Source: Nanobdellota archaeon
Lineage (GTDB): Archaea; Nanobdellota; Nanobdellia; Pacearchaeales; GW2011-AR1
Assembly (NCBI GenBank): GCA_038045945.1
Contig: JBBSXC010000001.1
Location: 52,592-116,591 of the forward strand
Length of the DNA: 64,000 nucleotides
Direction: 5' to 3'
Of the stretch, positions 7,813-61,986 are shown piece by piece; within the stretch, counting starts at the first letter, position 1; the number at the start of each line of letters is the position of its first letter. The position numbers and the translations under genes are program-made. The notes beneath the pieces were generated by a model. That model was not told where the DNA came from and did no database searches. It was given only the letters and a program-made list of their open reading frames with translations.

Positions 7813-8847
7813 CTAATAGTATTTTAGAAGCATTACTTTTCTTACTTCTTCCATAGTTTTGCTTGCTTCCTCCCTTGCTTTTTCTCCTCCTTCTCTTAGT
7901 ACTGTCTCTATTGTTTTGTCTGATATGCTGTCAAACCTGTTTCTGTATTCTTTGTATGTTGTTGACATTAATGGTGGTAGTTTTTGTTTGCATTCTCCAC
8001 ATCCTAGTATTGCTTGCCTACAACCGTAGTATACTTCAGCGAATTTTTCTTGGTTGTATATTCTGTGAAGGTCGTAAACGCTGCATTCGTCTGGGTTTCC
8101 TGCGACTTGCATACTTGTTCTTTTTGGGTCTATTCTCATCTTTGCAACTTTTTCTGATAATGTTTTTCCTGTGTCTTGTGGGCTTATCGTGTTTGCGTAA
8201 CTCTTTGACATTTTTCTTCCGTCTGTTCCTAGTATTCTTGGCGCGTTACTTGTCAGTATTTCTGGTACTGGGAATATTGGTCCGTATGTTGCGTTGAATC
8301 TTTTTGCTAATTCTTGGCATAGTTCTATGTGTGGTTTTTGGTCGTCTCCTACAGGTACATATTTTGCTTTGTGTACTAGTATGTCTGCTGCTTGTAATAA
8401 TGGGTATCCTAAAAACCCGTAACTTACTTGGTCTGCTTCTAATTTTTTTCTGTTATGTCCTTCTTCTTTCATTATTTGTACGTATTCTGTGAATGTTGGC
8501 ATTCTCTGAAGTCTTGCTACTGTGTTTAGCATTGATAACGCTACGTGTAACTCTGCGTGTTGTGGTACGTCTGATTGTACAAATATTGTTGATTTTTTTG
8601 GGTCTATTCCGAAAGCTAACCAGTCACGAACCATGTCATAAGTGTTTTTTCTTATTTCTTTTGATTCTGTGTTTGTTGTTAGTGCGTGCCAGTCTGCTAC
8701 GAAGAATTTGCATGCGTATTCTTCTTGTAATTGTAACCATTTTCTTAATACTCCTTCTATGTGCCCTATGTGTAGTCTTCCTGTTGGTCTCATCCCGGAT
8801 AATACTGTAGGTTTTAATTCATCATTAGTTTTTTCTTCTAAACTCAT
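7813..8847 (-). CDS. trpS: tryptophanyl-tRNA synthetase, bacterial type, with C-terminal Cys cluster
   Basis: LSGMRPTGRLHIGH (HIGH), GIDPKKSTIFVQS (near-identical to E. coli GIDPEKSTIFVQS), KMSKS; C-x20-C-x6-C-x2-C near C-terminus resembles [4Fe-4S] TrpRS motif. Confidence 0.9.
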   Translation of the reverse strand: MSLEEKTNDELKPTVLSGMRPTGRLHIGHIEGVLRKWLQLQEEYACKFFVADWHALTTNTESKEIRKNTYDMVRDWLAFGIDPKKSTIFVQSDVPQHAELHVALSMLNTVARLQRMPTFTEYVQIMKEEGHNRKKLEADQVSYGFLGYPLLQAADILVHKAKYVPVGDDQKPHIELCQELAKRFNATYGPIFPVPEILTSNAPRILGTDGRKMSKSYANTISPQDTGKTLSEKVAKMRIDPKRTSMQVAGNPDECSVYDLHRIYNQEKFAEVYYGCRQAILGCGECKQKLPPLMSTTYKEYRNRFDSISDKTIETVLREGGEKAREEASKTMEEVRKVMLLKYY

Positions 8848-21897: not shown

Positions 21898-24135
21898 ATG
21901 AAAGAAATAAGAGGTGGTAAAGTACTTTTGGGTTTTTTGTTAATAATTGTTTTCTTATTTTCCTTATTTCTTTTTGCTAATAATGGTTCTTATTCTGGTT
22001 TAGCTGTTTATAATTTTGGCCCTTTTGATGATAGTAATAGTTTTGGTCTTTGGACTTCTAGTGGTTCTAGTATGGACGGTTCTTACTCTATTGACAATCA
22101 AGTTTTTTCTGGTGGTACTGGTAGTTTGAAGGGTTCTACAGCCGGTCATAATAAGTCTTTTGTTGGCGTTACTCTTAGTCAGAAGCTTTCTCCTAATATG
22201 ACTCAGAATGGTGAATACCTCAATTTTTATTGGCGTAAGTCTTATCAGAATTCTTTATCTGTTACTAATAATATGTCTATTATTCTTTTAAGACCTGATA
22301 ATAGTAAGGTTGTTTTGTGGAATGATTTGTCTAATAATTATGATTCTTGGTCTGGTGAATCTGTTCAGATTAATTCTTTTAATCAACAGGGGGATTATTA
22401 TCTGGTTTTGGGTTGTGATTTGAAAACTGGTGAACTTTCTGATAATTCTTCTTCTACTTCTTGTTATTTTGATGAGGTAGTTATTGATACTCAGGGGAGT
22501 CCTTCTTCGCCCATTAGCCCTTTCTTTTATTCTTATCAGCAAACTCCTTCTAGTGGTGTTTCTTATAATGTTTCTACGGTTTATGATTTTAGGGTTTCTG
22601 TTTCTAATTCTGATGGTAAACCTTGGATTGATTTGGATAGTGCTAATAGGAGTCTTTCTCAAGTTTCTGGTAATACTTATCGTTTATTGGCCAGTAATTT
22701 GAGTGCTGGTACGCATTCTTTTTATTATTGGAGTTGGAATAATGGCGGTATTGCTAGTAGAGCTAGGAATTCTTCTCCTGTTATGACTTATCAGGTAACT
22801 AAAGGTTTTGGGGAGCTTAAGACTATTATTAATGGTTATAGGGGCGATTACACTGTTTCTAACAACACTGTTATTTGTTTTTCTGTTATTGCTCCAGATT
22901 CTGCTGATGGTTTGAGAACTATTTCTGTTAATGGTAAGTTGTTTGGTAAGCACGATAGTAACTTTCAGAATTGTACTTCTTTCTCTACCCCTCAGGTTGT
23001 TAATATTAGTTCTTATTGGGATGGCGGTACTAACTACTTTTCTGATTCTGAGTCATGGCAACTTAGAGTTATTAAGGAGTCTGAAATAGTTAATTATAAT
23101 GAGACTGTGATTAAGGTTCTTTCACCTTTCAATATAGATTATTCTTCTGATACTAAATTTTTAGATTTCTCTCTTGTTTCTAATACTGATCTTCGTGAGT
23201 GTCGTTATTCCTTAAACGGTTTAGAATCAGTACTTATGGATAAGGCTAATGGTACTTCTTTCTCTAAAAACGTTATTACAACTCCTGGCTCTCACCAATT
23301 GTTCTTTATATGTAAGGATAATCTTGGTACTGTTTTTAATGTTCAACCAGTTATTAATTTTAATGTTAAGGATCAGCCTAAAGTTGGTGTTATTAAGTCT
23401 AATTTGAATTTTTCTTCAGTTAATGATTCTTGTACTCCTTCTTGGAAGTGTTCAGAGTGGTCTGATTGTTCTGCTGTTTCTTATGATCCTAGTGAAATAA
23501 TTAGTGGTAAGATTGATGTTAGGGGTGAGCAGAGGAGGATTTGTTATGATACTACTATTTGTAAGAATGCGGTTATTGAGAAGCAGGTTTGTGATGTTAG
23601 GATCCCTGTTAGGGCTGAGGCTAAGTTTTGGTGTGAACAAAACTATATTGAGATTTATGATTTAGTTACTAACCAGTTAGTTAGTAGGATTAAGGAGAGG
23701 GATATTGGCAATACTAAGACTGCTGATATTGGTTTTGTTATGAGTGAATTTGGTGATTATTGTGATTATTGTTATAATGATGCTCGTGATTTTGATGAAG
23801 CTGGTATTGATTGTGGTGGTAAAAATTGTCCTGCTTGTTACAATAAGAGTTCGCAGAAGGCTCTTTCTTCTAATGCTTTAAGGTTTTCTTTAACTATTAT
23901 TGAAGTTTTAGTTTTGGGTAGCATTATTTCTTACTTGTTTTATTGGTTGATTGTTAAAAGGTTGTGGGCTGGTGAAGAGTCTGAAGAGTTGGTTAGTCCT
24001 GCGATGTCGCTTGTTAAGCAGGCTATGAAGAGGGGTTATTCTAAGGACCAAATTTATGAATTGTTCAAGAAGAAGGGTTGGAAGGATAGGGATATTGATC
24101 AGTTAATAAGGGAATCGCAAAAAAAGTTTGATTAA
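21898..24135 (+). CDS. large cell-surface protein (signal/TM anchor, Cys-rich region, C-terminal TM and cytoplasmic tail)
   Basis: N-terminal hydrophobic helix, S/T/N-rich extracellular repeats, Cys-rich segment, TM LTIIEVLVLGSIISYLFYWLIV. Confidence 0.6.
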   Translation: MKEIRGGKVLLGFLLIIVFLFSLFLFANNGSYSGLAVYNFGPFDDSNSFGLWTSSGSSMDGSYSIDNQVFSGGTGSLKGSTAGHNKSFVGVTLSQKLSPNMTQNGEYLNFYWRKSYQNSLSVTNNMSIILLRPDNSKVVLWNDLSNNYDSWSGESVQINSFNQQGDYYLVLGCDLKTGELSDNSSSTSCYFDEVVIDTQGSPSSPISPFFYSYQQTPSSGVSYNVSTVYDFRVSVSNSDGKPWIDLDSANRSLSQVSGNTYRLLASNLSAGTHSFYYWSWNNGGIASRARNSSPVMTYQVTKGFGELKTIINGYRGDYTVSNNTVICFSVIAPDSADGLRTISVNGKLFGKHDSNFQNCTSFSTPQVVNISSYWDGGTNYFSDSESWQLRVIKESEIVNYNETVIKVLSPFNIDYSSDTKFLDFSLVSNTDLRECRYSLNGLESVLMDKANGTSFSKNVITTPGSHQLFFICKDNLGTVFNVQPVINFNVKDQPKVGVIKSNLNFSSVNDSCTPSWKCSEWSDCSAVSYDPSEIISGKIDVRGEQRRICYDTTICKNAVIEKQVCDVRIPVRAEAKFWCEQNYIEIYDLVTNQLVSRIKERDIGNTKTADIGFVMSEFGDYCDYCYNDARDFDEAGIDCGGKNCPACYNKSSQKALSSNALRFSLTIIEVLVLGSIISYLFYWLIVKRLWAGEESEELVSPAMSLVKQAMKRGYSKDQIYELFKKKGWKDRDIDQLIRESQKKFD

Positions 24136-37903: not shown

Positions 37904-38041
37904 TGAGCCTATGCGGATTTGAACCGCAGACCTCCGGCTTTCTTAGCACGTATATGCCACTAAAGCATTAGTTCGCTCAAGTTGCTTGAGAGAACAACGT
38001 CTTATAAGACCGGCGTTCTAACCGGGCTGAACTATAGGCTC
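37904..38041 (-). tRNA. tRNA-Ile (anticodon TAT = UAU) containing a ~63-nt intron at the canonical 37/38 position
   Basis: acceptor GAGCCTA/TAGGCTC (perfect), D-arm GTTC-AGCCCGGTTA-GAAC, anticodon stem CCGGT...GCCGG with loop CTTATAA interrupted after position 37, T-arm TGCGG-TTCAAAT-CCGCA. Confidence 0.7.
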
Positions 38042-41845: not shown

Positions 41846-43882
41846 TTAGTGGTATTCGTTTCTTGCTTTGAATGAGTCTATGAATTTGCTGTTGTCGTCT
41901 CTGTTTACTACGCTGTTTAGTTCGTATGCTTCTGTGTCTCCTTTAACTATCTTTTTGACTTTTGTTGCTGATGCTACTCTTCTTTGCATTTGTTGTGATA
42001 GTAATACTTCGCTTGTTGCTCCGTCTGCTAATTTTTTTGCTAGGCTTAGTGTTTGTCCTAGGCTTGTGAATTTTAGTTTTTTTGTTTGTTTGTCTATTTC
42101 TACTACTAGGTCTCCGTGGTTTATTCCTATTCCGAATTCTATTTTGTTTGCTGGGTTTGATTTTGAGTTGTGTAGTGTTAGTACGGATTTTATTTCTTGT
42201 GCTATTATTAGGCTTGTGTTTTCTGTTTTGTATGTTTTCGTTGCGCTTGGTGCTAGTATTCCTATGATGAATTCTTCTGCTTGGTATACTGATCCTTTAA
42301 CTTTTGTTATTTGTGCTATTATTGTTTCTAGTGCTGTTTTGTAGTAGTCTTGTTTTTCTATTTTTTGTTTGTTTTTTATTTTTATTGCTATTATTGAGCA
42401 TGGTTCTTTAACTCCCCTTATTACTAGTGAGTGTTCTGCTTCTTTTGGTGTTACTCTTCCTATTGTTACGTCTGAGCTTCTTATTGTGCTTATGTTTGGT
42501 GCTTCGTAGTTTGTGTTTCCGTACTTGTTTCCTTTTACAAGCCTACTTAATGCTGCCAGTGAAGGCATGTAGTGTATGAATTTTTGTTTTCCTAAGCCTT
42601 TTGATACTCCGAATATGAATAGTCCTAATACGCCTAGTATGAATAGCCATACTAGCGAGTATCTTGTTATTATTGATGTGCTGTCTGCTACGTCGATAAG
42701 TCTTACTGCATTACCTGTTAGTGATATTCCTGATGCTGAGAATTTTCCTACCCCATCTGTTGCTGATACGTCGTAACTTCCGTCTGGTGCTTGTAAACTG
42801 TATATTGCGCTTTCACCAACTCCTAATTCTAAGTCTATTATTTCTTTGTTTGGTCCTATTCCTACCTCAACGCTTTTTTTGTATGGTACGTTTCCCGTAT
42901 TTGCTATTTTTAGTGTTGTGTTGACTATTTCGAATGTTACTTTTTCTACTTCTGGTACGTAGAAGAATCGTTTGTTGCTTAGTGATTCTACTTTTACTAC
43001 TATTGTTCTGTATCCTGGTGTTTCGTTTATTGGTAAATCAATCATTATGTCTTCTCCCGAGTTTACTATTTGGTCGTTTATTTTTGTGTCTTCTCCGTTT
43101 AGTAATGAGTATCTTGCTTGTGTTGTTATTTCTTTATCTGTTTGGTCGTATACTAATATTTTGAATTTGTATGGTGTTCCTGGTGTTGCTTCTTGGTTTT
43201 CTATTGATACTTCTATTTTTCTTGCTTCTTGTTTTACGAATATGTTGCTTTCTAGGTTTGCGTCGTTTATTATGTTTCCTTGTTTGTCTTTTTCGTAAAC
43301 TTTTGTTTTTATTGAGTATGTTCCTGATGCCATGTTTTGTGGTAGGCTGAAGTTGTATACTGCTACTCCGTTAATTACTGGTAAGTCTAGTGATATTCCT
43401 GCTTCTGCGAATGTTACTGATGCGAATCCGTTTATTGCTTTTCCGTTTGCTTTTGTTGCGCTTATTCTTATGATTATGCTTTCGCTAGGCCCTACTTCTT
43501 TTTTGTCTATTTCTGCGTATGCGTCGGTGTGGTCGCTTATTGTGAATGTTTGGCTTTGAACTGATGATGTTCCGTATGTTGCTGCTATGAAGCATGATCC
43601 TTTTAGTGGTCCTATGAATGAGTTTGATAAAGTGAATGATTTTCTTACAATTGTTGATGATAATATGTCGTGTGTTATTACTACTTTGTTTTGTTCGCAG
43701 TTAAGACTCATATCGAAGAAGTTGTCTGATAAGCTGTCCACTGTTGCTGCTAGTGTTATTTCGTCGCCTAAGTTGTAAATTGCTGCTGGTTGTTCTAAGA
43801 ATACTTCAGCTCGCACAGCGCTAACTGTTAGTAATAATGTTACTGCTAAAACTATTAATAATACTGTTGATGACTTCACCAT
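41846..43882 (-). CDS. receptor-like surface protein: signal peptide, large extracellular region, single TM, cytoplasmic degenerate class III nucleotidyl-cyclase homology domain
   Basis: N-terminal MVKSSTVLLIVLAVTLLLTVSAVRA; TM LVWLFILGVLGLFIFGV; C-terminal FGIGINHGDLVV...LGQTLSLAKKLADGATSEVLLS matches cyclase (R)IGIHTG..VVG...GDTVNLAARLE..G.ILVS, but metal-binding Asp positions are replaced (IIAIKIKN). Confidence 0.55.
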   Translation of the reverse strand: MVKSSTVLLIVLAVTLLLTVSAVRAEVFLEQPAAIYNLGDEITLAATVDSLSDNFFDMSLNCEQNKVVITHDILSSTIVRKSFTLSNSFIGPLKGSCFIAATYGTSSVQSQTFTISDHTDAYAEIDKKEVGPSESIIIRISATKANGKAINGFASVTFAEAGISLDLPVINGVAVYNFSLPQNMASGTYSIKTKVYEKDKQGNIINDANLESNIFVKQEARKIEVSIENQEATPGTPYKFKILVYDQTDKEITTQARYSLLNGEDTKINDQIVNSGEDIMIDLPINETPGYRTIVVKVESLSNKRFFYVPEVEKVTFEIVNTTLKIANTGNVPYKKSVEVGIGPNKEIIDLELGVGESAIYSLQAPDGSYDVSATDGVGKFSASGISLTGNAVRLIDVADSTSIITRYSLVWLFILGVLGLFIFGVSKGLGKQKFIHYMPSLAALSRLVKGNKYGNTNYEAPNISTIRSSDVTIGRVTPKEAEHSLVIRGVKEPCSIIAIKIKNKQKIEKQDYYKTALETIIAQITKVKGSVYQAEEFIIGILAPSATKTYKTENTSLIIAQEIKSVLTLHNSKSNPANKIEFGIGINHGDLVVEIDKQTKKLKFTSLGQTLSLAKKLADGATSEVLLSQQMQRRVASATKVKKIVKGDTEAYELNSVVNRDDNSKFIDSFKARNEYH

Positions 43883-44002: not shown

Positions 44003-45145
44003 ATGACTGTTTTTATGGTAAAGGGTGAATCAATGAAGGTTACTCCTTATGAAGCAAAAGGGGAAATAGACTATGATCAATTAGTAAAACAGTTCGGTGT
44101 TGAGAGGATTGATCAAGATTTAATGAAGAGGATAGAAAAGAAGGCAGGTGAGCTACATTTCATGCTTCGCAGAGGAGTCTTTTTTGCGCATAGAGACTTA
44201 AAATTTGTACTTGAAGAGTACGATAAGGGAAACAAGTTTTATCTTTACACTGGGAGAGCTCCAAGTGGACCAATACATTTAGGGCATCTACAACCTTGGA
44301 TTTTTACTAAGTGGTTACAGGATACTTTTGGTGTAGAGTTATGGTTTCAATTCCCTGATGAAGAAAAATTTTTGTTTAAACCAGAGATGAGTTTTGAGGA
44401 TGGACAAAAATATCTTAATGATAATATGTTGGACATTATAGCTTTAGGTTTTGATCCTAAAAAGACTCACTTCTTGATAGATACTAAGCATGCAAATGCT
44501 ATGTACAAAGAAGCATGTAAAGTAGCAAAAAAGATTACTTTTAACATGGTAAGGTCATCATTCGGATTTGATGAAAGTGATAATATAGGATTAATATTTT
44601 ACACTAGTATGCAAGCTGTTCCAGCATTTTTGCCTTCGGTAATCGCAAAAAAGAATATTCCTTGTTTGATTCCTCACGCAGTTGACCAAGACGTCCACTT
44701 TAGGTTAACTAGGGATATTTTGCCAAAACTAGGTTATTATAAACCTGCAAGTATTCAATGCGTATTTTTGCCGCCTTTACAGGGGGTTGCTGGAAAGATG
44801 AGTTCATCACAAAGCAGTGAAGCAATACTAACTACTGATACACCAAAGGAAGTTGAGCGTAAGATTAACAGGTACGCTTTTAGTGGGGGAAGAGATACCA
44901 TTGAGGAGCATCGTAAACTTGGAGGAAATCCTGATGTTGATGTTTCTTACCAATATTTGAGGATGCTATTAGAAGATGATGATAAGAAACTAAAAAAGAT
45001 TCATGATGATTATAAGAGTGGAAAGATGACAACAGGCGAATTAAAGAAATATACTATTGATAAAATTAATTCTTTTTTAGCAGTTCATCAAAAGAAGCGC
45101 GAAGAAGCAAAAAAGGTTGTTGACAAATTTATTTGGAAAGAATGA
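44003..45145 (+). CDS. trpS: tryptophanyl-tRNA synthetase, archaeal/eukaryotic type
   Basis: YLYTGRAPSGPIHLGHLQPWIFTKWLQDTFGVELWFQFPDEEKF and AFSGGRDTIEEHRKLGGNPDVDVSYQYL are near-collinear with human WARS catalytic core; KMSSS. Confidence 0.9.
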   Translation: MTVFMVKGESMKVTPYEAKGEIDYDQLVKQFGVERIDQDLMKRIEKKAGELHFMLRRGVFFAHRDLKFVLEEYDKGNKFYLYTGRAPSGPIHLGHLQPWIFTKWLQDTFGVELWFQFPDEEKFLFKPEMSFEDGQKYLNDNMLDIIALGFDPKKTHFLIDTKHANAMYKEACKVAKKITFNMVRSSFGFDESDNIGLIFYTSMQAVPAFLPSVIAKKNIPCLIPHAVDQDVHFRLTRDILPKLGYYKPASIQCVFLPPLQGVAGKMSSSQSSEAILTTDTPKEVERKINRYAFSGGRDTIEEHRKLGGNPDVDVSYQYLRMLLEDDDKKLKKIHDDYKSGKMTTGELKKYTIDKINSFLAVHQKKREEAKKVVDKFIWKE

Positions 45146-53412: not shown

Positions 53413-54687
53413 ATGGAAAGAAAAATGATTAGCGATTTGAAGGAGGGCGAGCATTCTTTGATTAAGGGTTGGGTTCATGAAATTCGTGATTTGTCTAAGA
53501 TGAAGTTTATTCTACTTAGGGATTCTTCGGGTATTGTCCAGTGCATTATTAAGGATGATAAGTTGATGAAGGATTCTTCTAGCATTAGTTTGGAGAGCGT
53601 TATTGAGATTGAAGGAGCGGTGAATAAGGCTTCTGTTAAGGCTGATCTTGCTCGTAAAGATGTTGAACTTCATGCTAAGTCTATTAAGATTCTTAGTTTG
53701 GCTGAAACTTTACCTATTCAAGTTAATGAAAAAACAATAACTACTGAATTACCAACAAGGCTTGATCATCGTTCTTTAGATGTTAGGAAGCCTAAAATTT
53801 CAGCTATTTTTAAGATTCAGAGTGAAATAGCTAATTCTTTCAGAAAGTTTTTTTATAAGAATGGTTTTACTGAGATTCAACCACCTTTTATTATTGGAGC
53901 AGCAAGCGAGGGTGGAAGTGAAGTTTTTGAGGTTAAATATTTTGATAAGAAGGCTTACTTAGCTCAAAGTCCTCAATTGTATAAACAAATGATGGCTTGT
54001 GCTTTTGAGAAAGTTTTTGCTTTAGGCCCTGCTTGGAGAGCAGAGAAGCATAATACTACTAGACACATTAATGAGATAAGGCAAATGGATGTAGAAGTAG
54101 CCTTCACCGACCAAATGCAAATAATGAAGTTGCAAGAGGAGGTTTTACAATTCATAATTCAGAACGTTAAAGAAAGATGTTCAAGAGAACTAGAAATATT
54201 GGGAAGAAGTGATATAAAAGCTCCTAAGGGTGTATACTTACATTATGAGGATGCTATTAAGAAGTCTGGTGGAAAAATTGGTGAGGATTTTACTCCTGAA
54301 CAGGAAAGGAAGCTTTGTGACATGTACCCTGGGGACATAGTGTTTACTCATTCTTGGCCTACAAGCATTAAAGTTTTTTATATAATGCCTAAGGATGGTA
54401 AGAAGAATGCTACTGAAAGTTGTGGTTTTGATTCTTTGTATGGCGGCGTTGAGATTTCTAGTGGTGGTCAACGTATTCACATTCCAGAATTATTAATTGA
54501 TAGGATTAAAGCTAAGGGTTTGAACCCTAAAGATTTTAAAACTTATATTGATAGTTTCCGTTACGGTGCTCCACCTCATAGCGGTTGGGCTTTAGGTCTT
54601 GAAAGACTTACCCAAATGATTTGCGGTCTTGATAATATTAAAGAAGCAACATTATTCCCTAGAGACAGGGATAGGTTGACACCTTAG
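53413..54687 (+). CDS. aspS: aspartyl-tRNA synthetase, archaeal type
   Basis: OB-fold N-terminus, class IIb motifs FRAEKHNTTRHINE, GGVEISSGGQRIH, C-terminal FPRDRDRLTP. Confidence 0.85.
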   Translation: MERKMISDLKEGEHSLIKGWVHEIRDLSKMKFILLRDSSGIVQCIIKDDKLMKDSSSISLESVIEIEGAVNKASVKADLARKDVELHAKSIKILSLAETLPIQVNEKTITTELPTRLDHRSLDVRKPKISAIFKIQSEIANSFRKFFYKNGFTEIQPPFIIGAASEGGSEVFEVKYFDKKAYLAQSPQLYKQMMACAFEKVFALGPAWRAEKHNTTRHINEIRQMDVEVAFTDQMQIMKLQEEVLQFIIQNVKERCSRELEILGRSDIKAPKGVYLHYEDAIKKSGGKIGEDFTPEQERKLCDMYPGDIVFTHSWPTSIKVFYIMPKDGKKNATESCGFDSLYGGVEISSGGQRIHIPELLIDRIKAKGLNPKDFKTYIDSFRYGAPPHSGWALGLERLTQMICGLDNIKEATLFPRDRDRLTP

Positions 54688-54691
54688 AACC

Positions 54692-56026
54692 ATGGTTAAA
54701 AAAGTAGAAAAAGTTTCTGTTGATACTCACAGCGAATCATTCATTAGTATTTCTGATGCTATCAAGCAAGGTTCTGGTCGTGTTTCTATTAGAGGTTGGG
54801 TTTATCGTGAGAGGGATGGAAAAGAATTAAGATTCATAGTCCTAAGAGACTCAAGTAATATAATACAGTGCGTGTTGAAAAAGGAAAAGTTTGAAAAACA
54901 ATGGGGAGAGATAAGTAAAATAGGAATTGAAAGCTCACTAGAAATAGTTGGGGAAATAAAAGCAGACGCTCGAGCACCAACAGGTTACGAAATATCAGCA
55001 GAAAAAATAATAATAGTGCAAATAGCTGAGGATTTCCCCATTAACAAAGATTTGAACGAGGAGTTGCTTGGAGACAGAAGGCATTTGTGGCTTCGTAGTA
55101 GAAAGATGACTTCTATTATGAAGATTAGAAGCAGGTATATACAGGCTAGAGAAGCATTCTTTCATAAAGAGGGATTTTATCGTTTTGATACTCCTATACT
55201 TCAACCAACACAAAGCGAAGGTGGAAGTACAGTTTTTGAAGTAAAATATTATGATAAAAAAACGTTTTTAGCCCAAACATGGCAGTTATACGGCGAATCA
55301 GCAATTTTCGCTCTTGAAAAAGTTTACAATATGGGTCCAACTTTCAGGGCTGAGAAGAGTAATACTTCAAGACATTTATCTGAATTTTGGATGGCAGAAG
55401 TAGAAGTGGCCTGGTGGGGTCTTAAAGAAATATCTGAGTTTGCAAAAAAAGAATTAAAACATTGTATAAGCATAGTGGTAAAAGAATGTGAGGAAGAGTT
55501 TAAGATATTAGGAGTGGATGCAAAAAAATTGTTAGAGATGACAAAGAAAGAGTGGCCTACAATTAAGTATCGTGATGCACTAAAATTAATAAAAGAAAAA
55601 GATGGGATGACAGTACCGTTCGGCAAGGATTTAAGGACAATTGAAGAACAAACAATAATGAAACATTTTGATACTCCTGTTGTTGTTACTCATTATCCTA
55701 AAGAAATAATGGCTTTTTATAAGCCGAGTGACCCAAAAAGTCCTGATGAAGCATTATGCTTTGATATGTTAGCTCCACAGATAGGCATAGAGATAGTTGG
55801 AGGAAGCCAAAGAGACTTGAATGTTGAGGAGATGTCAAAAAAACTAAAAGCTGATGGTGAAGACCCAAAAAATTATCAGTTTTATTTTGATACTAGGAAG
55901 TATGGAAGTGTGCCTCATTCAGGATACGGAGTAGGAATCGAGAGGGTAATACAGTGGATTTGTGGTCTTGAAAGTATTAAGGATGCTATTGCCTTCCCTA
56001 GGACTATGAATAGGACAACTCCTTAA
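54692..56026 (+). CDS. asnS: asparaginyl-tRNA synthetase
   Basis: FRAEKSNTSRHLSEFWMAEVEVAW (AsnRS-specific SNTSRHL.EFWM), C-terminal FPRTMNRTTP. Confidence 0.85.
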   Translation: MVKKVEKVSVDTHSESFISISDAIKQGSGRVSIRGWVYRERDGKELRFIVLRDSSNIIQCVLKKEKFEKQWGEISKIGIESSLEIVGEIKADARAPTGYEISAEKIIIVQIAEDFPINKDLNEELLGDRRHLWLRSRKMTSIMKIRSRYIQAREAFFHKEGFYRFDTPILQPTQSEGGSTVFEVKYYDKKTFLAQTWQLYGESAIFALEKVYNMGPTFRAEKSNTSRHLSEFWMAEVEVAWWGLKEISEFAKKELKHCISIVVKECEEEFKILGVDAKKLLEMTKKEWPTIKYRDALKLIKEKDGMTVPFGKDLRTIEEQTIMKHFDTPVVVTHYPKEIMAFYKPSDPKSPDEALCFDMLAPQIGIEIVGGSQRDLNVEEMSKKLKADGEDPKNYQFYFDTRKYGSVPHSGYGVGIERVIQWICGLESIKDAIAFPRTMNRTTP

Positions 56027-56129
56027 ATAATTGCGATAATTACTAAAAAGATTATGAGTGCGCCTTAATGATTGATCAGTATAGTTTGTTTCAGCAATTC
56101 TTAAATAACGTTCTAACAACTAATTTTTT

Positions 56130-56933
56130 ATGAAGAGACGTTATTTTCCTTTGACTCGTGGTAAAAGGTTGAGGGAAGCAAATTTTGATTCCACTTGGGA
56201 TAGTTATCTTAAAGGTAGAAGCGATTATGATCGTAATGCTTTGGTAGAGCATTATATGCCTTTAGTTGATGATGTTATTAATTCTTTAATTAGGACTTTG
56301 CCCCCTTATATTGATGTTCAAGAGTTGTCAGGTCCTGGGAATATGGGTCTTCTTCAAGCAGTTATTAATTGTGATTCTAAAAAACTAACAGTTTTTGATC
56401 ATTATGCTAGGAAGAGAATAAAGGGTTCTGTTCTTGATCATTTGAGAAGTTTAGACTTTATGCCTAGGACTAGAAGAATATTTTTGAAGAAGTCAAAGAA
56501 GGCTGAGTTAAATCTCAATAATAAGCTTGGTAGAAAATGCACTGATGAGGAATTATGTAAATATATGGGTATGAGTTATGATGATTATTATAAGAAGATG
56601 TCTGAGGCTCGCGAAGTTGAGAGTTTGGAGTATGATGATTTTGGTACAGAAACAGCCTCTAATGATTTGAGAAGAAGGAGACTTTTATTAGAAGATTTAG
56701 ATTTAGATCCTCAAATAGCAACTACTCTAAGAGAAGTTTCTAGTATAGCCAGGGATAATCTTTCTGATGAAGATTATAAGATGCTAACTTTAAGAATGGA
56801 GAATAGAGGTAATGAGGAGATAGGTATAAGTATTCGTGGTTTAGCTCCTTCCACAATTTGTGCTAGATTAAGAAAAGCGGTTTATCCTTGTATTAAGGAG
56901 AAATTGGGTGAAGGTTATGAAGAAGCAGCATAA
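56130..56933 (+). CDS. sigma-70 family RNA polymerase sigma factor, FliA/sigma-28-like (bacterial type)
   Basis: region 2: ALVEHYMPLVDDVINSLIRTLPPYIDVQELSGPGNMGLLQAVINCD...FDHYARKRIKGSVLDHLRSLDFMPRTRR aligns position-by-position with E. coli FliA (YVPLVRHEALRL..LPASVELDDLLQAGGIGLLNAVERYD...[28 protein letters not shown]); region 4 LSDEDYKMLTLRMENRGNEEIGISIRGLAPSTICARLRKAV. Confidence 0.8.
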   Translation: MKRRYFPLTRGKRLREANFDSTWDSYLKGRSDYDRNALVEHYMPLVDDVINSLIRTLPPYIDVQELSGPGNMGLLQAVINCDSKKLTVFDHYARKRIKGSVLDHLRSLDFMPRTRRIFLKKSKKAELNLNNKLGRKCTDEELCKYMGMSYDDYYKKMSEAREVESLEYDDFGTETASNDLRRRRLLLEDLDLDPQIATTLREVSSIARDNLSDEDYKMLTLRMENRGNEEIGISIRGLAPSTICARLRKAVYPCIKEKLGEGYEEAA

Positions 56934-57741
56934 ATTAGGAGTTTTTCTTGAAGGTGGTGGCATTAAGACTTTTTATGGAGGTGGAGTTATTGATCAATTA
57001 AAGGCTTTTGGGATAAAGCCCGATTATTATGCTGGCATAAGTGCTTCTGCTGGTACAATATTTGGTAACATTTTTTCTTGTAGTGAAGAAATAATTGATA
57101 TTTTTGGTAAGAGGTGTGATAATAATAAGAAAAACTTTTATTTCTTTAGAAAGCCTCACTTTCCTCATAACCATATGATGGAGAATTCTCTTATAAAAAT
57201 TTTTGATAAGCACATAAAGAATCCTAATTCTAAATCAGAATTCAAAATTATTGCCGGAATAACGAATAATAACTATTCTTGGGTTAAGACCCATTTGGTT
57301 CTTTATTTGATGATAATGAAAAATCTTCTTCGCATAAACCTCTTTGATTATTTCAGAAAAATGTTTTCTGTTAAAGAATCAAGTATTACCTCTGATGATA
57401 ACTTAGATAAAAAAGTTATTGTTAATTTTATTATGGGTTCTTCAAGCATCTATCCTTTCATCAAACCCCATTATCATGATGGTAAACTCTTGCTCGAGGC
57501 TAATTGTTTAGATCTAGATTACCAGAATTGTCTAAGTAATTGTGATAAAGGTATAATAATTCATAATTCTACTGGTAAAAGTTTTGTTAATGGTAAATTT
57601 TTACATGTTTATTCTTCTACTAGTTTGCCCAGTAACATTTTAGATTATACTAGCAAAGAAAAGCTTGTTAGTTTAAGAAAAGTTGGTATGCTAGAGGTAA
57701 AAAAGCAGAAATTTTTTGTTGAAAAGTTTATTTCTTCTTAA
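56917..57741 (+). CDS. patatin-like phospholipase
   Basis: LEGGGIKTFYGGG (oxyanion G-G-G-x-K motif), GISASAG (nucleophile-Ser region); alternative GTG start 56908; overlaps last 17-26 nt of sigma gene. Confidence 0.7.
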   Translation: MKKQHKLGVFLEGGGIKTFYGGGVIDQLKAFGIKPDYYAGISASAGTIFGNIFSCSEEIIDIFGKRCDNNKKNFYFFRKPHFPHNHMMENSLIKIFDKHIKNPNSKSEFKIIAGITNNNYSWVKTHLVLYLMIMKNLLRINLFDYFRKMFSVKESSITSDDNLDKKVIVNFIMGSSSIYPFIKPHYHDGKLLLEANCLDLDYQNCLSNCDKGIIIHNSTGKSFVNGKFLHVYSSTSLPSNILDYTSKEKLVSLRKVGMLEVKKQKFFVEKFISS

Positions 57742-57809: not shown

Positions 57810-57827
57810 TCGTCGATTTATCGACGA
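57810..57827. promoter_or_regulatory. perfect palindrome tcgtcgat-tt-atcgacga upstream of ftsZ (candidate operator)
   Basis: 8-bp arms, 2-nt centre, in the 310-nt spacer before ftsZ. Confidence 0.35.
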
Positions 57828-57941
57828 TAAAACAACGTAGCTATAGGGTAAAAATATATAAAGAAGAAGTGCTTCGTGTTTGTATTAATTTGACCCGCCA
57901 AGATTAAATTAATACCGTTCGTTTAATGAAGAGTATTTCTT

Positions 57942-60864: not shown

Positions 60865-61986
60865 TTAGGAGGATACTATTCCACCACCTATTACTTCGTA
60901 GCTTTTTGGTTTGTATATTACGCTTGCTTGCCCTTGACTTATTCCTGTTGCTCCTTCTTTTAGTGTTATTGTGAAACTTTTCTTTTTTGTTTCGTATTTC
61001 ATTTTTGCTGGTAATAATTCTCCTACTTTTCTTATTCTAACGTCCACCGTCATTTTTTTCTTTTTTGTTTCCTTAATGTCTTCTGTTATTAGGTGTAAAT
61101 TTTTTATTGTGAAGTATTTTTTCAGTAATATTGGGTGTCCTTTTGGTGCTGCTACTATTATGTTTTTCTTTACGTCTTTTTTTGCTACGTACCACCTTTG
61201 TGAATTAATCCTGTCGCGCACGCCAGGATTAATGTCAATACCAAAACGCGGGCCTATTCTTTGTCCTATTGTGTAGTAGAACACTCCGTCATGTTCTCCT
61301 ATGATTTTTCCTTCTGGCGAGAGTATTTTTCCTTTTTTTTGTTTTATTTTCTTTTTTAAGAATTCTTTCAGATTTACCTTTCCTATGAAGCATATTCCTT
61401 TTGTTGATTCTCTGTCATGGTTTGGTAATTCTAGTTTTTTTGCTATGTTTCTTATTTCTTTTTTTGTGTATTCTCCTATTGGGAATAGTGTGTGGCTTAA
61501 GTCTTCTTGACTTAGTCTGTATAGGAAGTATGATTGATCTTTTAGGTCTTCTTTTCCTCTAAGTAAATAATACTTGTTTTTTTTCTTTTTTATTCTTGCG
61601 TAATGTCCCGTTACTATGTACTGGCACCCTAATTTTTTTGCTGCTTTCCATAATAATGGGAATTTTACTAGTTGGTTGCAGTCTACGTCAGGGTTTGGTG
61701 TTATTCCTTCTTTGTATTGTTTGAACATTTCTTCTACTACACTTTTGCGGTATTCTTTTTCGAAATCTAGGGTTATTAGCGGTAGGTTTAGTTTTGCTGT
61801 TACACGTCTTGCCATTCTTCTGTCTTCGCGCCAGGAGCATTCTCCCATATCGTTTTTTGTGTCACTCCAATTTTTCATGAATGCACAAATAACTTCGTGT
61901 CCTTCTTTATTCATTAAGTATGCTGCAATACTTGAGTCTACTCCACCCGATAACGCTACTAGTACTTTAGTTTTTTTCTTTTCCAT
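60865..61986 (-). CDS. mnmA: tRNA-specific 2-thiouridylase MnmA (bacterial type)
   Basis: KVLVALSGGVDSSIAAYLM PP-loop (SGGxDS), catalytic Cys contexts, 373 aa. Confidence 0.85.
   Translation of the reverse strand: MEKKKTKVLVALSGGVDSSIAAYLMNKEGHEVICAFMKNWSDTKNDMGECSWREDRRMARRVTAKLNLPLITLDFEKEYRKSVVEEMFKQYKEGITPNPDVDCNQLVKFPLLWKAAKKLGCQYIVTGHYARIKKKKNKYYLLRGKEDLKDQSYFLYRLSQEDLSHTLFPIGEYTKKEIRNIAKKLELPNHDRESTKGICFIGKVNLKEFLKKKIKQKKGKILSPEGKIIGEHDGVFYYTIGQRIGPRFGIDINPGVRDRINSQRWYVAKKDVKKNIIVAAPKGHPILLKKYFTIKNLHLITEDIKETKKKKMTVDVRIRKVGELLPAKMKYETKKKSFTITLKEGATGISQGQASVIYKPKSYEVIGGGIVSS

Follow-up and report, generated by a model that had tools for sequence, protein, structure and literature searches.

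A FliA/WhiG-type sigma-70-family gene in a variable slot beside a resident patatin-like gene on a Pacearchaeota-like DPANN chromosome

Bacterial sigma factors should have no partner in archaea, which initiate transcription with TBP, TFB and TFE and which, to our knowledge, are without a bacterial-type RNA polymerase (RNAP). In bacteria, the group 3 sigma factors, namely FliA or sigma-28 (E. coli, PDB ID: 6PMI; Aquifex, 1RP3; P. aeruginosa, 9WSM) and Streptomyces WhiG (6PFV), share the order sigma-2, sigma-3, linker and sigma-4. Here we analyse a 64-kb stretch of contig JBBSXC010000001.1 (referred to as the window) from a Pacearchaeota-like DPANN chromosome, in which a FliA/WhiG-type, group 3 gene of the sigma-70 family occupies a variable slot between a class II aminoacyl-tRNA synthetase (aaRS) gene and a resident patatin-like gene. 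The closest described cases are the sigma-70 genes of DPANN archaea (family fam00359), which have been reported as 'particularly prevalent in Woesearchaeota', with mis-binning excluded, no anti-sigma factors found and the mechanism called unclear (Castelle et al. 2021, PMC8204110). Our search of the literature on DPANN sigma-70 genes found nothing further beyond that study. A protein identical to the one described here is named 'sigma-70 domain-containing protein [Nanoarchaeota archaeon]' by NCBI, on contigs of up to 506 kb. A sigma factor in an archaeon, the surprising point of an earlier note on this DNA, is not in itself new, since such genes were reported in DPANN in 2021 and the protein already carries a sigma-70 name. 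Like the fam00359 genes, the window gene is of bacterial type on a contig with archaeal markers, no anti-sigma factor is evident, and its host belongs to the Woesearchaeota/Pacearchaeota part of DPANN (PMC8204110). It differs from the other DPANN homologues in that no relative exceeds 33% identity. What this instance adds is the geometry of its promoter, its codon amelioration, a remodelling specific to one region and a dating by synteny.

The earlier note had read the open reading frame (ORF) at 56130..56933 as a FliA-like sigma-70-family gene, and both the coordinates and the family identity are borne out by Pfam, NCBIfam, PDB and fold comparisons. Sigma70_r3 matches aa 120-179 with 32.9 bits (gathering cutoff 25.3; E 7e-08) and Sigma70_r2 matches aa 38-108 with 24.9 bits, marginally over its gathering cutoff of 24. 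The top NCBIfam models are all FliA/WhiG, with TIGR02479 (FliA_WhiG) at E=6.8e-30; its score of 104.5 bits lies under the cutoff of 189.6 bits, and every FliA/WhiG equivalog model likewise stays under its own cutoff, which sets the window protein apart from bacterial FliA/WhiG. A phmmer search of the PDB gave E. coli FliA (6pmi_F, E=2.4e-19) aligned over aa 32-260, further matches being Aquifex FliA (1rp3) and then WhiG. The AlphaFold2 model, built on 64 relatives, has a predicted local distance difference test (pLDDT) score of 84.8, and a Foldseek search with this model retrieved sigma-70-family chains only (B. subtilis SigD, WhiG, P. aeruginosa sigma-28 and Aquifex FliA). The best profile and structure matches are those of FliA/WhiG, with which the protein also shares the domain order, the absence of region 1.1 and a comparable length (267 aa against 239-280 aa). 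The gene and its domains are arranged as follows.

56130..56933, + strand: sigma-70-family gene, FliA/WhiG-like (group 3), 267 aa, from profile, PDB, AlphaFold2 and tree evidence
56175..56453, + strand: sigma domain 2, regions 2.1-2.4, aa 16-108, from Pfam Sigma70_r2, conserved columns, AlphaFold2 helices and contact mapping
56466..56615, + strand: sigma domain 3, regions 3.0-3.1, aa 113-162, from Pfam Sigma70_r3, with R113 and R116 of D-F-x-P-R-x-x-R included
56625..56699, + strand: acidic/basic linker of low confidence, aa 166-190, at the position of the region 3.2 'finger', from AlphaFold2 (pLDDT <50 at aa 166-175 and 177-190)
56709..56906, + strand: four-helix region resembling sigma domain 4, aa 194-259, its 4.2 recognition helix remodelled, from AlphaFold2 helices and conserved columns

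For an audit of residue conservation, an alignment of 64 FliA-like relatives supplied 75 columns with a conservation of 60% or more. The window sigma is identical at 35 of the 50 such columns in regions 2-3.0 and conservative at 46, whereas region 4 is identical at 10 of 21 and carries 8 radical changes. The radical changes are concentrated in region 4 (8/21 against 4/50 in regions 2-3; Fisher p=0.004). The promoter contacts of E. coli sigma-28 were taken from a cryogenic electron microscopy study (bioRxiv 10.1101/2020.01.02.893370). The region 2.2 core-binding motif is retained, and the three family-invariant arginines that contact the -10 element (R74, R84 and R94 in E. coli) are kept as R96, R106 and R116. 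The segment LDFMPRTRR, which the earlier note had singled out as FliA-type, sits on the family motif D-W/F-x-P-R-x-x-R at the junction of regions 2.4 and 3.0, and all five motif residues (D109, F110, P112, R113 and R116) fall on columns with at least 78% conservation. In contrast to FliA/WhiG, both experimentally defined -35 contacts are replaced, K208 by E229 (K or R in 49/64 family members) and R220 by T242 (R in 57/64); a K208A-R220A double mutant of E. coli sigma-28 is defective (bioRxiv 10.1101/2020.01.02.893370). The family signature of region 4.2, E-S-R-V-x-Q-x-H, reads P-S-T-I-C-A-R-L here.

The residue-by-residue alignment with FliA claimed in the earlier note does not extend to region 4, where the 4.2 signature is replaced and HMMER posterior support is low. 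Pfam Sigma70_r4 has no match in the ORF at E<=0.1, whereas the bacterial neighbours of the window sigma do carry an r4 match. Since the four-helix sigma-4-like fold is still predicted, the region 4 domain appears to be present but diverged. The simpler description that region 4 alone is divergent had to be softened, as the mean identity of the window sigma is outlying both in region 4 (z=-2.45) and in region 2 (z=-2.4). The long branch concerns the protein as a whole, and it is the radical changes that are concentrated in region 4.

Upstream of the gene lies an archaeal-type promoter signal. Among 64 window genes, TATA-like hexamers peak at -28/-29 from the start codons (11+7=18 hits, against about 1-2 at each other position), a geometry which implies that most transcription units in this genome would be leaderless. 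The sigma gene has its hexamer TTAAAT at -29, matching this window-wide peak. Two expression signals are associated with the locus.

56101..56108, + strand: TATA-like box TTAAATAA, with its first base at -29 from the sigma ATG, read from the sequence
56897..56914, + strand: Shine-Dalgarno-like GGAG ... GGGTGAAGG, within the sigma coding sequence at 3-20 nt before the patatin ATG, read from the sequence

The box at -29 is probably an archaeal promoter driving a leaderless sigma transcript, and there is good support for the view that the archaeal machinery would transcribe the gene from this box as a leaderless mRNA. The transcript would probably read through into the patatin gene, which has no TATA-like box and a Shine-Dalgarno-like sequence instead, as expected for an operon-internal gene; co-transcription of the two genes in this organism is plausible. 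Boxes of the same kind are also seen at -28/-29 upstream of 46918, 50760 and 52535. Alignment of the promoter region with that of a relative lacking the sigma gene gave AT-rich sequence that is uninformative about homology.

The neighbourhood is archaeal, as the earlier note had it. The window carries genes for Rpo7/RpoE', Spt4, S24e, S27ae, GatE and GatD, and the flank just outside it adds eIF-1A, a KH/PNO1 protein and an Rpb1-type RNAP subunit. Both GC content and the choice of synonymous codons are host-like (z=+0.80 for codon usage of the sigma gene), which agrees with the similarity in composition noted before and argues, with good support, that the sigma has either been resident long enough, or come from a similar enough donor, to acquire host-like codon usage. 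The order aaRS-sigma-patatin-FtsZ is found in ENA assemblies of two filter fractions from the Hainich groundwater well H43 (contigs of 445 kb and 2 kb) and in Logan assemblies of two further runs, i.e. in at least four independent assemblies from two pipelines, with identical junctions and 0 nucleotide differences across the locus. An assembly chimera or bacterial contamination of the contig, for which nothing speaks beyond the bacterial affinity of the sigma gene itself, is very unlikely because of this shared gene order without differences and the host-like GC content and codon usage; the sigma ORF moreover overlaps the start of a gene with archaeal orthologues and has an archaeal-type promoter in place. 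The probability that we leave to such an artefact is next to nothing, and the earlier impression that the locus is not chimeric holds at the level of assemblies.

Sigma-28 promoters of the form TAAA-N15-GCCGATAA have 0 full matches in the window. One-mismatch sigma-28 -10 boxes are at chance level (33 against 25.7 +/- 4.5 expected), and a scan for generic sigma-70 promoters near the locus likewise gave matches at chance level; a sigma-28 regulon in the window was rejected on the basis of these scans. Unlike the loci of FliA/WhiG, the annotated flanks contain no flagellar genes and no FlgM- or RsiG-like partner, although no search was aimed at partners. The protein may well not work as a canonical sigma-28, because the flank holds an archaeal Rpb1-type RNAP gene, neither -35 contact is kept and sigma-28 promoters are absent from the window; this reading is less firm than those on transcription and codon usage above.

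One could still imagine a canonical sigma-28 acting on the bacterial core RNAP of a host or partner after delivery in trans by the archaeon, a presumed episymbiont, or on an undetected bacterial-type polymerase in the cell itself. The retained region 2.2 core-binding motif and the invariant -10-contacting arginines would suit such a function, and the patatin-like fold of the neighbouring gene product is used by the bacterial effectors VipD and ExoU. However, no signal peptide or secretion signal is evident at the N-terminus, both -35 contacts are lost, and no bacterial RNAP genes were seen in the window and its flank, where an archaeal Rpb1-type gene adjoins the window. We know of no precedent for the delivery of a sigma factor between cells, which also counts against the idea. 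DPANN archaea are thought to be symbionts, which would provide an occasion for delivery, but their known hosts are archaea (PMC8204110). Taken together, a canonical role on a bacterial polymerase has hardly any likelihood.

The origin of the gene was approached through its relatives. A full HMMER scan of 1.84 billion (1.84e9) representatives gave 9,146 relatives, the best non-self match having 108 bits and 33% identity, and a word-indexed search of 5.8 billion clusters returned the protein itself and two FliA proteins with 36-37% identity over 46% of the query. The closest relatives, about 30-33% identical, are bacterial FliA, and the neighbours that have names or genomic context are bacterial FliA of Planctomycetota, of Verrucomicrobiota and of loci with flagellar rod genes. 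In a neighbour-joining (NJ) tree the terminal branch of the window sigma is the longest in the family sample (0.867 against 0.545 +/- 0.117 for the others), a further difference from FliA/WhiG. The protein is an orphan on a long branch and, with no relative more than 33% identical, not part of a conserved DPANN clade.

Another archaeal member of the family, MBI4021590.1 (P0017 in our set), is a FliA/WhiG-family sigma of the Candidatus Aenigmarchaeota metagenome-assembled genome (MAG) GCA_016198585.1 (contig JACQII010000016.1; locus L020:10001-11673). Its 183-kb contig is genuinely archaeal, with exosome, L37ae, RpoP, prefoldin and proteasome genes. Like the window sigma, it is of FliA type on an archaeal contig and its 3' end overlaps the next gene by a few nt (4 nt); unlike it, the Aenigmarchaeota protein keeps an ESRVCQ signature in region 4.2 together with a weak Pfam r4 match, and its downstream partner is a ParB_N/HTH_ParB gene rather than a patatin gene. 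We also observed that this gene lies beside the exosome operon in an island that holds PPK2, PP2C, two LSDAT_prok genes and small ORFs without annotation; the island may be an integrated element or serve in defence. The window sigma ranks 56th of 64 among the neighbours of the Aenigmarchaeota sigma, and the two are sisters in 5/200 NJ bootstraps. A common origin of the two archaeal sigmas was rejected by the distances and the bootstraps. The low rank, the rare sisterhood and the longest branch fit independent acquisitions, and there is good support for a horizontal acquisition of the sigma in this lineage, independent of that of the Aenigmarchaeota gene. The two unrelated genes together suggest repeated capture of the same sigma subfamily.

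The window sigma might be cargo of an integrated virus, plasmid or other element. Phages do encode sigma factors, the protein matches PHROG 351 at 6e-11, the Aenigmarchaeota sigma is in an island with ParB_N, PPK2, PP2C and LSDAT genes, and the slot is an insertion hot spot with insertion sequence (IS) elements in relatives. However, no relative of the window sigma was found in IMG/VR, and the GenBank phage matches are no closer than bacterial FliA (30-34% identity, in regions 2-3 only). There is no integrase, transposase or bracketing repeat around the sigma gene, which stands as a single gene directly flanked by conserved syntenic housekeeping genes. We consider a mobile cargo improbable.

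The downstream gene, which is also found in relatives without the sigma, is as follows.

56917..57741, + strand: patatin-like hydrolase gene, 274 aa from ATG 56917, from Pfam, motifs and fold (the mechanical ORF begins at GTG 56908)

Two gene callers choose ATG 56917, and this codon, which aligns with the N-termini of orthologues and is preceded by GGAG/GGTGAAGG, is the most likely true start. From this ATG the gene overlaps the sigma stop by 17 nt in the same orientation, and the overlap described in the earlier note is thereby confirmed. The Pacearchaeota loci L005-L008 preserve the order aaRS-X-patatin-...-FtsZ-nitroreductase, with a 63-aa hydrophobic peptide in slot X; the flanking aaRS of the window is 62% identical to its L005 counterpart. 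On a 13.7-kb contig of the JGI metagenome 3300071358 the slot holds ORFs of 240 aa and 151 aa without Pfam match; the former is sigma-like in size, and neither is among the top matches to the window sigma. In L013 an unrelated ORF runs 7 nt into the patatin gene, and at patatin loci of bacteria of the candidate phyla radiation (CPR) the upstream gene is RNase R or others. The synteny aaRS-X-patatin-FtsZ is thus kept in at least 2 lineages with a slot X that lacks the sigma. The patatin contexts covered were those of six homologues (P0164, P0165, P0166, P0167, P0172 and P0175) and three metagenome loci. Neither tblastn with the sigma nor a FliA-family hidden Markov model on six-frame ORFs found a sigma or a remnant of one in 12 other patatin loci; both detect it only in the loci of this population and in two bacterial control loci. 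Slot-X ORFs were also considered as relics of a sigma gene and rejected where this could be tested, the 63-aa product of L005 being a hydrophobic peptide and the L013 fragment being unrelated. As a separate observation, IS1595- and IS4-type (DDE_Tnp_1) transposase genes lie between patatin and ftsZ in relatives without the sigma (L005:9622-11864 and L006:9622-14177), marking an insertion hot spot. Because syntenic patatin loci carry varied slot-X genes and no sigma, the patatin is the resident gene and the sigma a lineage-specific occupant of a plastic slot; the sister loci without the sigma date it as a lineage-specific gain.

The same comparison bears on the proposal of the earlier note that sigma and lipase form a functional pair, either a regulator with its effector or a defence/toxin module. 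In such a dedicated two-gene system the sigma-like protein would regulate or partner the patatin-like lipase; the two genes overlap by 17 nt in one orientation, which implies that they are co-transcribed and may be coupled in translation, and the patatin fold is closest to CapE and CapV, effectors of the cyclic oligonucleotide-based anti-phage signalling system (CBASS). However, patatin homologues are preceded by the 63-aa membrane peptide, the 240- and 151-aa ORFs, an unrelated ORF or RNase R, and never by a sigma gene, and the tight packing is generic, as the slot-X genes elsewhere lie as close to the patatin start (7-nt overlap to 6-nt gap). The other DPANN FliA-like sigma is paired with a ParB_N gene. 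Neither protein matches a PADLOC model, and no cyclase, sensor or immunity gene is annotated within +/-10 kb, where the locus neighbours are aaRS, FtsZ, nitroreductase and MnmA. The proposed pair was not found outside this population, and we found no paper on a sigma-patatin pairing. A dedicated system is already largely refuted by the comparative context and retains little probability; the adjacency would rather reflect insertion into a compact operon-like slot, and one should no longer treat a sigma-patatin 'module' as a system.

With these points in place, what the protein does in its host can be weighed. The sigma derivative may be retained for a non-canonical role as an accessory DNA- and/or RNAP-binding regulator with a re-specified helix-turn-helix (HTH), a reading to which we give an even chance. 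Sigma domains 2-3 and the re-specified HTH would then act together as a repurposed accessory regulator inside the archaeal cell. We consider this the most likely role because domains 2-3 keep the invariant residues and the ORF is intact in a very small genome. Several points weigh against it. Only one population carries the gene, which the nearest relatives lack; its branch is the longest, and its -35 reading head is degraded. A functionless passenger would fit all of this equally well. The residues of regions 2-3 may be a legacy of an unsampled bacterial donor from shortly before the transfer. As the relatives in the audit were picked by similarity to the query, apparent retention is inflated where the alignment is best. 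The assemblies offer 0 single-nucleotide polymorphisms for gauging purifying selection after the transfer (dN/dS), and the picture of RNAP and anti-sigma genes is that of 64 kb and about 3 kb of flank.

The functionless passenger, the main rival, would be a FliA gene that landed by chance in the plastic slot and is merely swept along by the promoter already present there, lacking a partner RNAP and slowly decaying from region 4. This account, possible though on balance doubtful, is in line with an orphan in a single population that is absent from the closest relatives and has the longest terminal branch in its family, with the loss of both -35 contacts and of the Pfam r4 match, with a window free of sigma-28 promoters and with a slot in which relatives carry IS elements and different ORFs. 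It is harder to reconcile with a 267-aa ORF that has kept its full length, free of frameshifts and stops, although the genome is highly reduced, and with radical substitutions that spare regions 2-3 (4/50), unlike uniform neutral decay. Fully host-like codon usage, a TATA box exactly at the modal position and a confident predicted fold including the four-helix sigma-4 also argue against it, although the fold prediction leans on the alignment.

Going further than an accessory regulator, the sigma could have been domesticated as a working component of archaeal transcription, or be exported to reprogram the RNAP of a bacterial partner; we regard these possibilities as unlikely. Under domestication, the sigma-2/sigma-3 surfaces would dock on the universally conserved clamp coiled-coil of archaeal RNAP or on -10-like single-stranded DNA, and the re-specified region 4 would read a new DNA element, adding a bacterial-style layer of promoter specificity over TBP/TFB. 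If true, domestication or export would supply the scattered and unexplained sigma-70 genes of DPANN with a concrete mechanism.

The locus defines no new category or system, and offers an experimental handle on the open question of DPANN sigma-70 genes. It is a clean test case, with a reproducible assembly, a probable leaderless archaeal promoter, host-like codons, intact domains 2-3 and a remodelled -35 head. Should the protein bind archaeal RNAP or DNA, it would show cross-domain re-use of a core bacterial initiation factor; should it bind nothing, the gene would calibrate the persistence of dead xenologs in reduced genomes.

The patatin-like gene deserves description in its own right. Its patatin-like identity, with the GGGxK and serine nucleophile motifs given in the earlier note, is upheld by PF01734 (45.3 bits, cutoff 27.7), and the gene is predicted to encode a divergent patatin-like hydrolase. 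The oxyanion motif GGGIK is at aa 13-17, with G14 and G15 invariant in a 17-member family and G-G-G-x-[KR] invariant throughout. The nucleophile elbow is G40-I-S42-A-S44; the family has an invariant G-x-S-x-S, in which the last Gly of G-x-S-x-G is replaced and the Ser is present. At the canonical D-G-[AG] position, after the strand at 190-193, there is E194, conserved at >=90% (E-A-N here, E-G-G/A in CPR homologues), and the motif N-I-L-D-Y-T has an invariant D243. These features suggest a putative non-canonical catalytic dyad in the family. The AlphaFold2 model has a pLDDT of 86.5 and a predicted template modelling (pTM) score of 0.86, with Foldseek matches to CapE, CapV, PlpD, VipD and cPLA2.

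In comparison to the known patatins CapV/CapE of CBASS, PlpD, VipD/ExoU and RssA, the window protein shares PF01734, GGG-x-K and the Ser elbow, and its fold is similar to CapE, CapV and PlpD (TM 0.56-0.62). It differs in having G-x-S-x-S instead of G-x-S-x-G and a Glu (E194, in E-A-N) in place of the Asp of D-G-[GA]. In contrast to CBASS effectors, it has no CD-NTase or other CBASS gene nearby and no PADLOC match. Relatives are 68% (Pacearchaeota), 65%, 62% and 48% (Nanoarchaeota) identical, and about 36% in CPR bacteria (e.g. Kaiserbacteria); unlike the known patatins, the family is common to Pacearchaeota and CPR bacteria and is found in housekeeping-type neighbourhoods. A scan of GTDB genomes with the patatin alignment found the Rifle Pacearchaeota MAG only. 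The distribution over Pacearchaeota/Nanoarchaeota and CPR (loci L005-L013 and L016-L019) suggests inter-domain exchange among ultra-small groundwater organisms.

Between patatin and ftsZ, a terminator-like scan detected one further element.

57810..57827, no strand assigned: perfect 7-bp hairpin TCGTCGA-TAAA-TCGACGA beside an A/T run, in the patatin-ftsZ spacer

This hairpin may mark the end of a transcript or act as a boundary element. Within 57810-57830, its right arm has the sequence GACGATAA, a 7/8 match to the sigma-28 -10 box; no TAAA is present at the proper spacing from it, and 7/8 matches of this kind occur at chance frequency in the window.

Some other genes of the window are worth recording. 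Two large ORFs with hydrophobic N-termini, at 41846-43882 (- strand, 678 aa, no Pfam match) and 21898-24135 (+ strand, 745 aa), are possible surface proteins for contact of the DPANN cell with its host. The gene at 60865-61986 (- strand) encodes an MnmA-type tRNA 2-thiouridylase with tRNA_Me_trans HUP, PRC-barrel and C-terminal domains; it has the same position in the Logan contigs and may be another bacterial-type gene on this archaeal contig. Two class I Trp/Tyr-type aaRS genes (tRNA-synt_1b) are located at 7813-8847 (- strand) and 44003-45145 (+ strand), with scores of 217.9 and 89.3 bits. The class II aaRS genes upstream of the sigma are tandem paralogues of the Asp/Asn/Lys type (OB anticodon-binding and tRNA-synt_2 domains) at 53413-54687 and 54692-56026, 4 nt apart, and the Pacearchaeota relatives have three such genes in the same region. 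Finally, an Rfam tRNA match of 138 nt at 37904-38041 (- strand), which is not called by ARAGORN, is consistent with an intron-containing archaeal tRNA.

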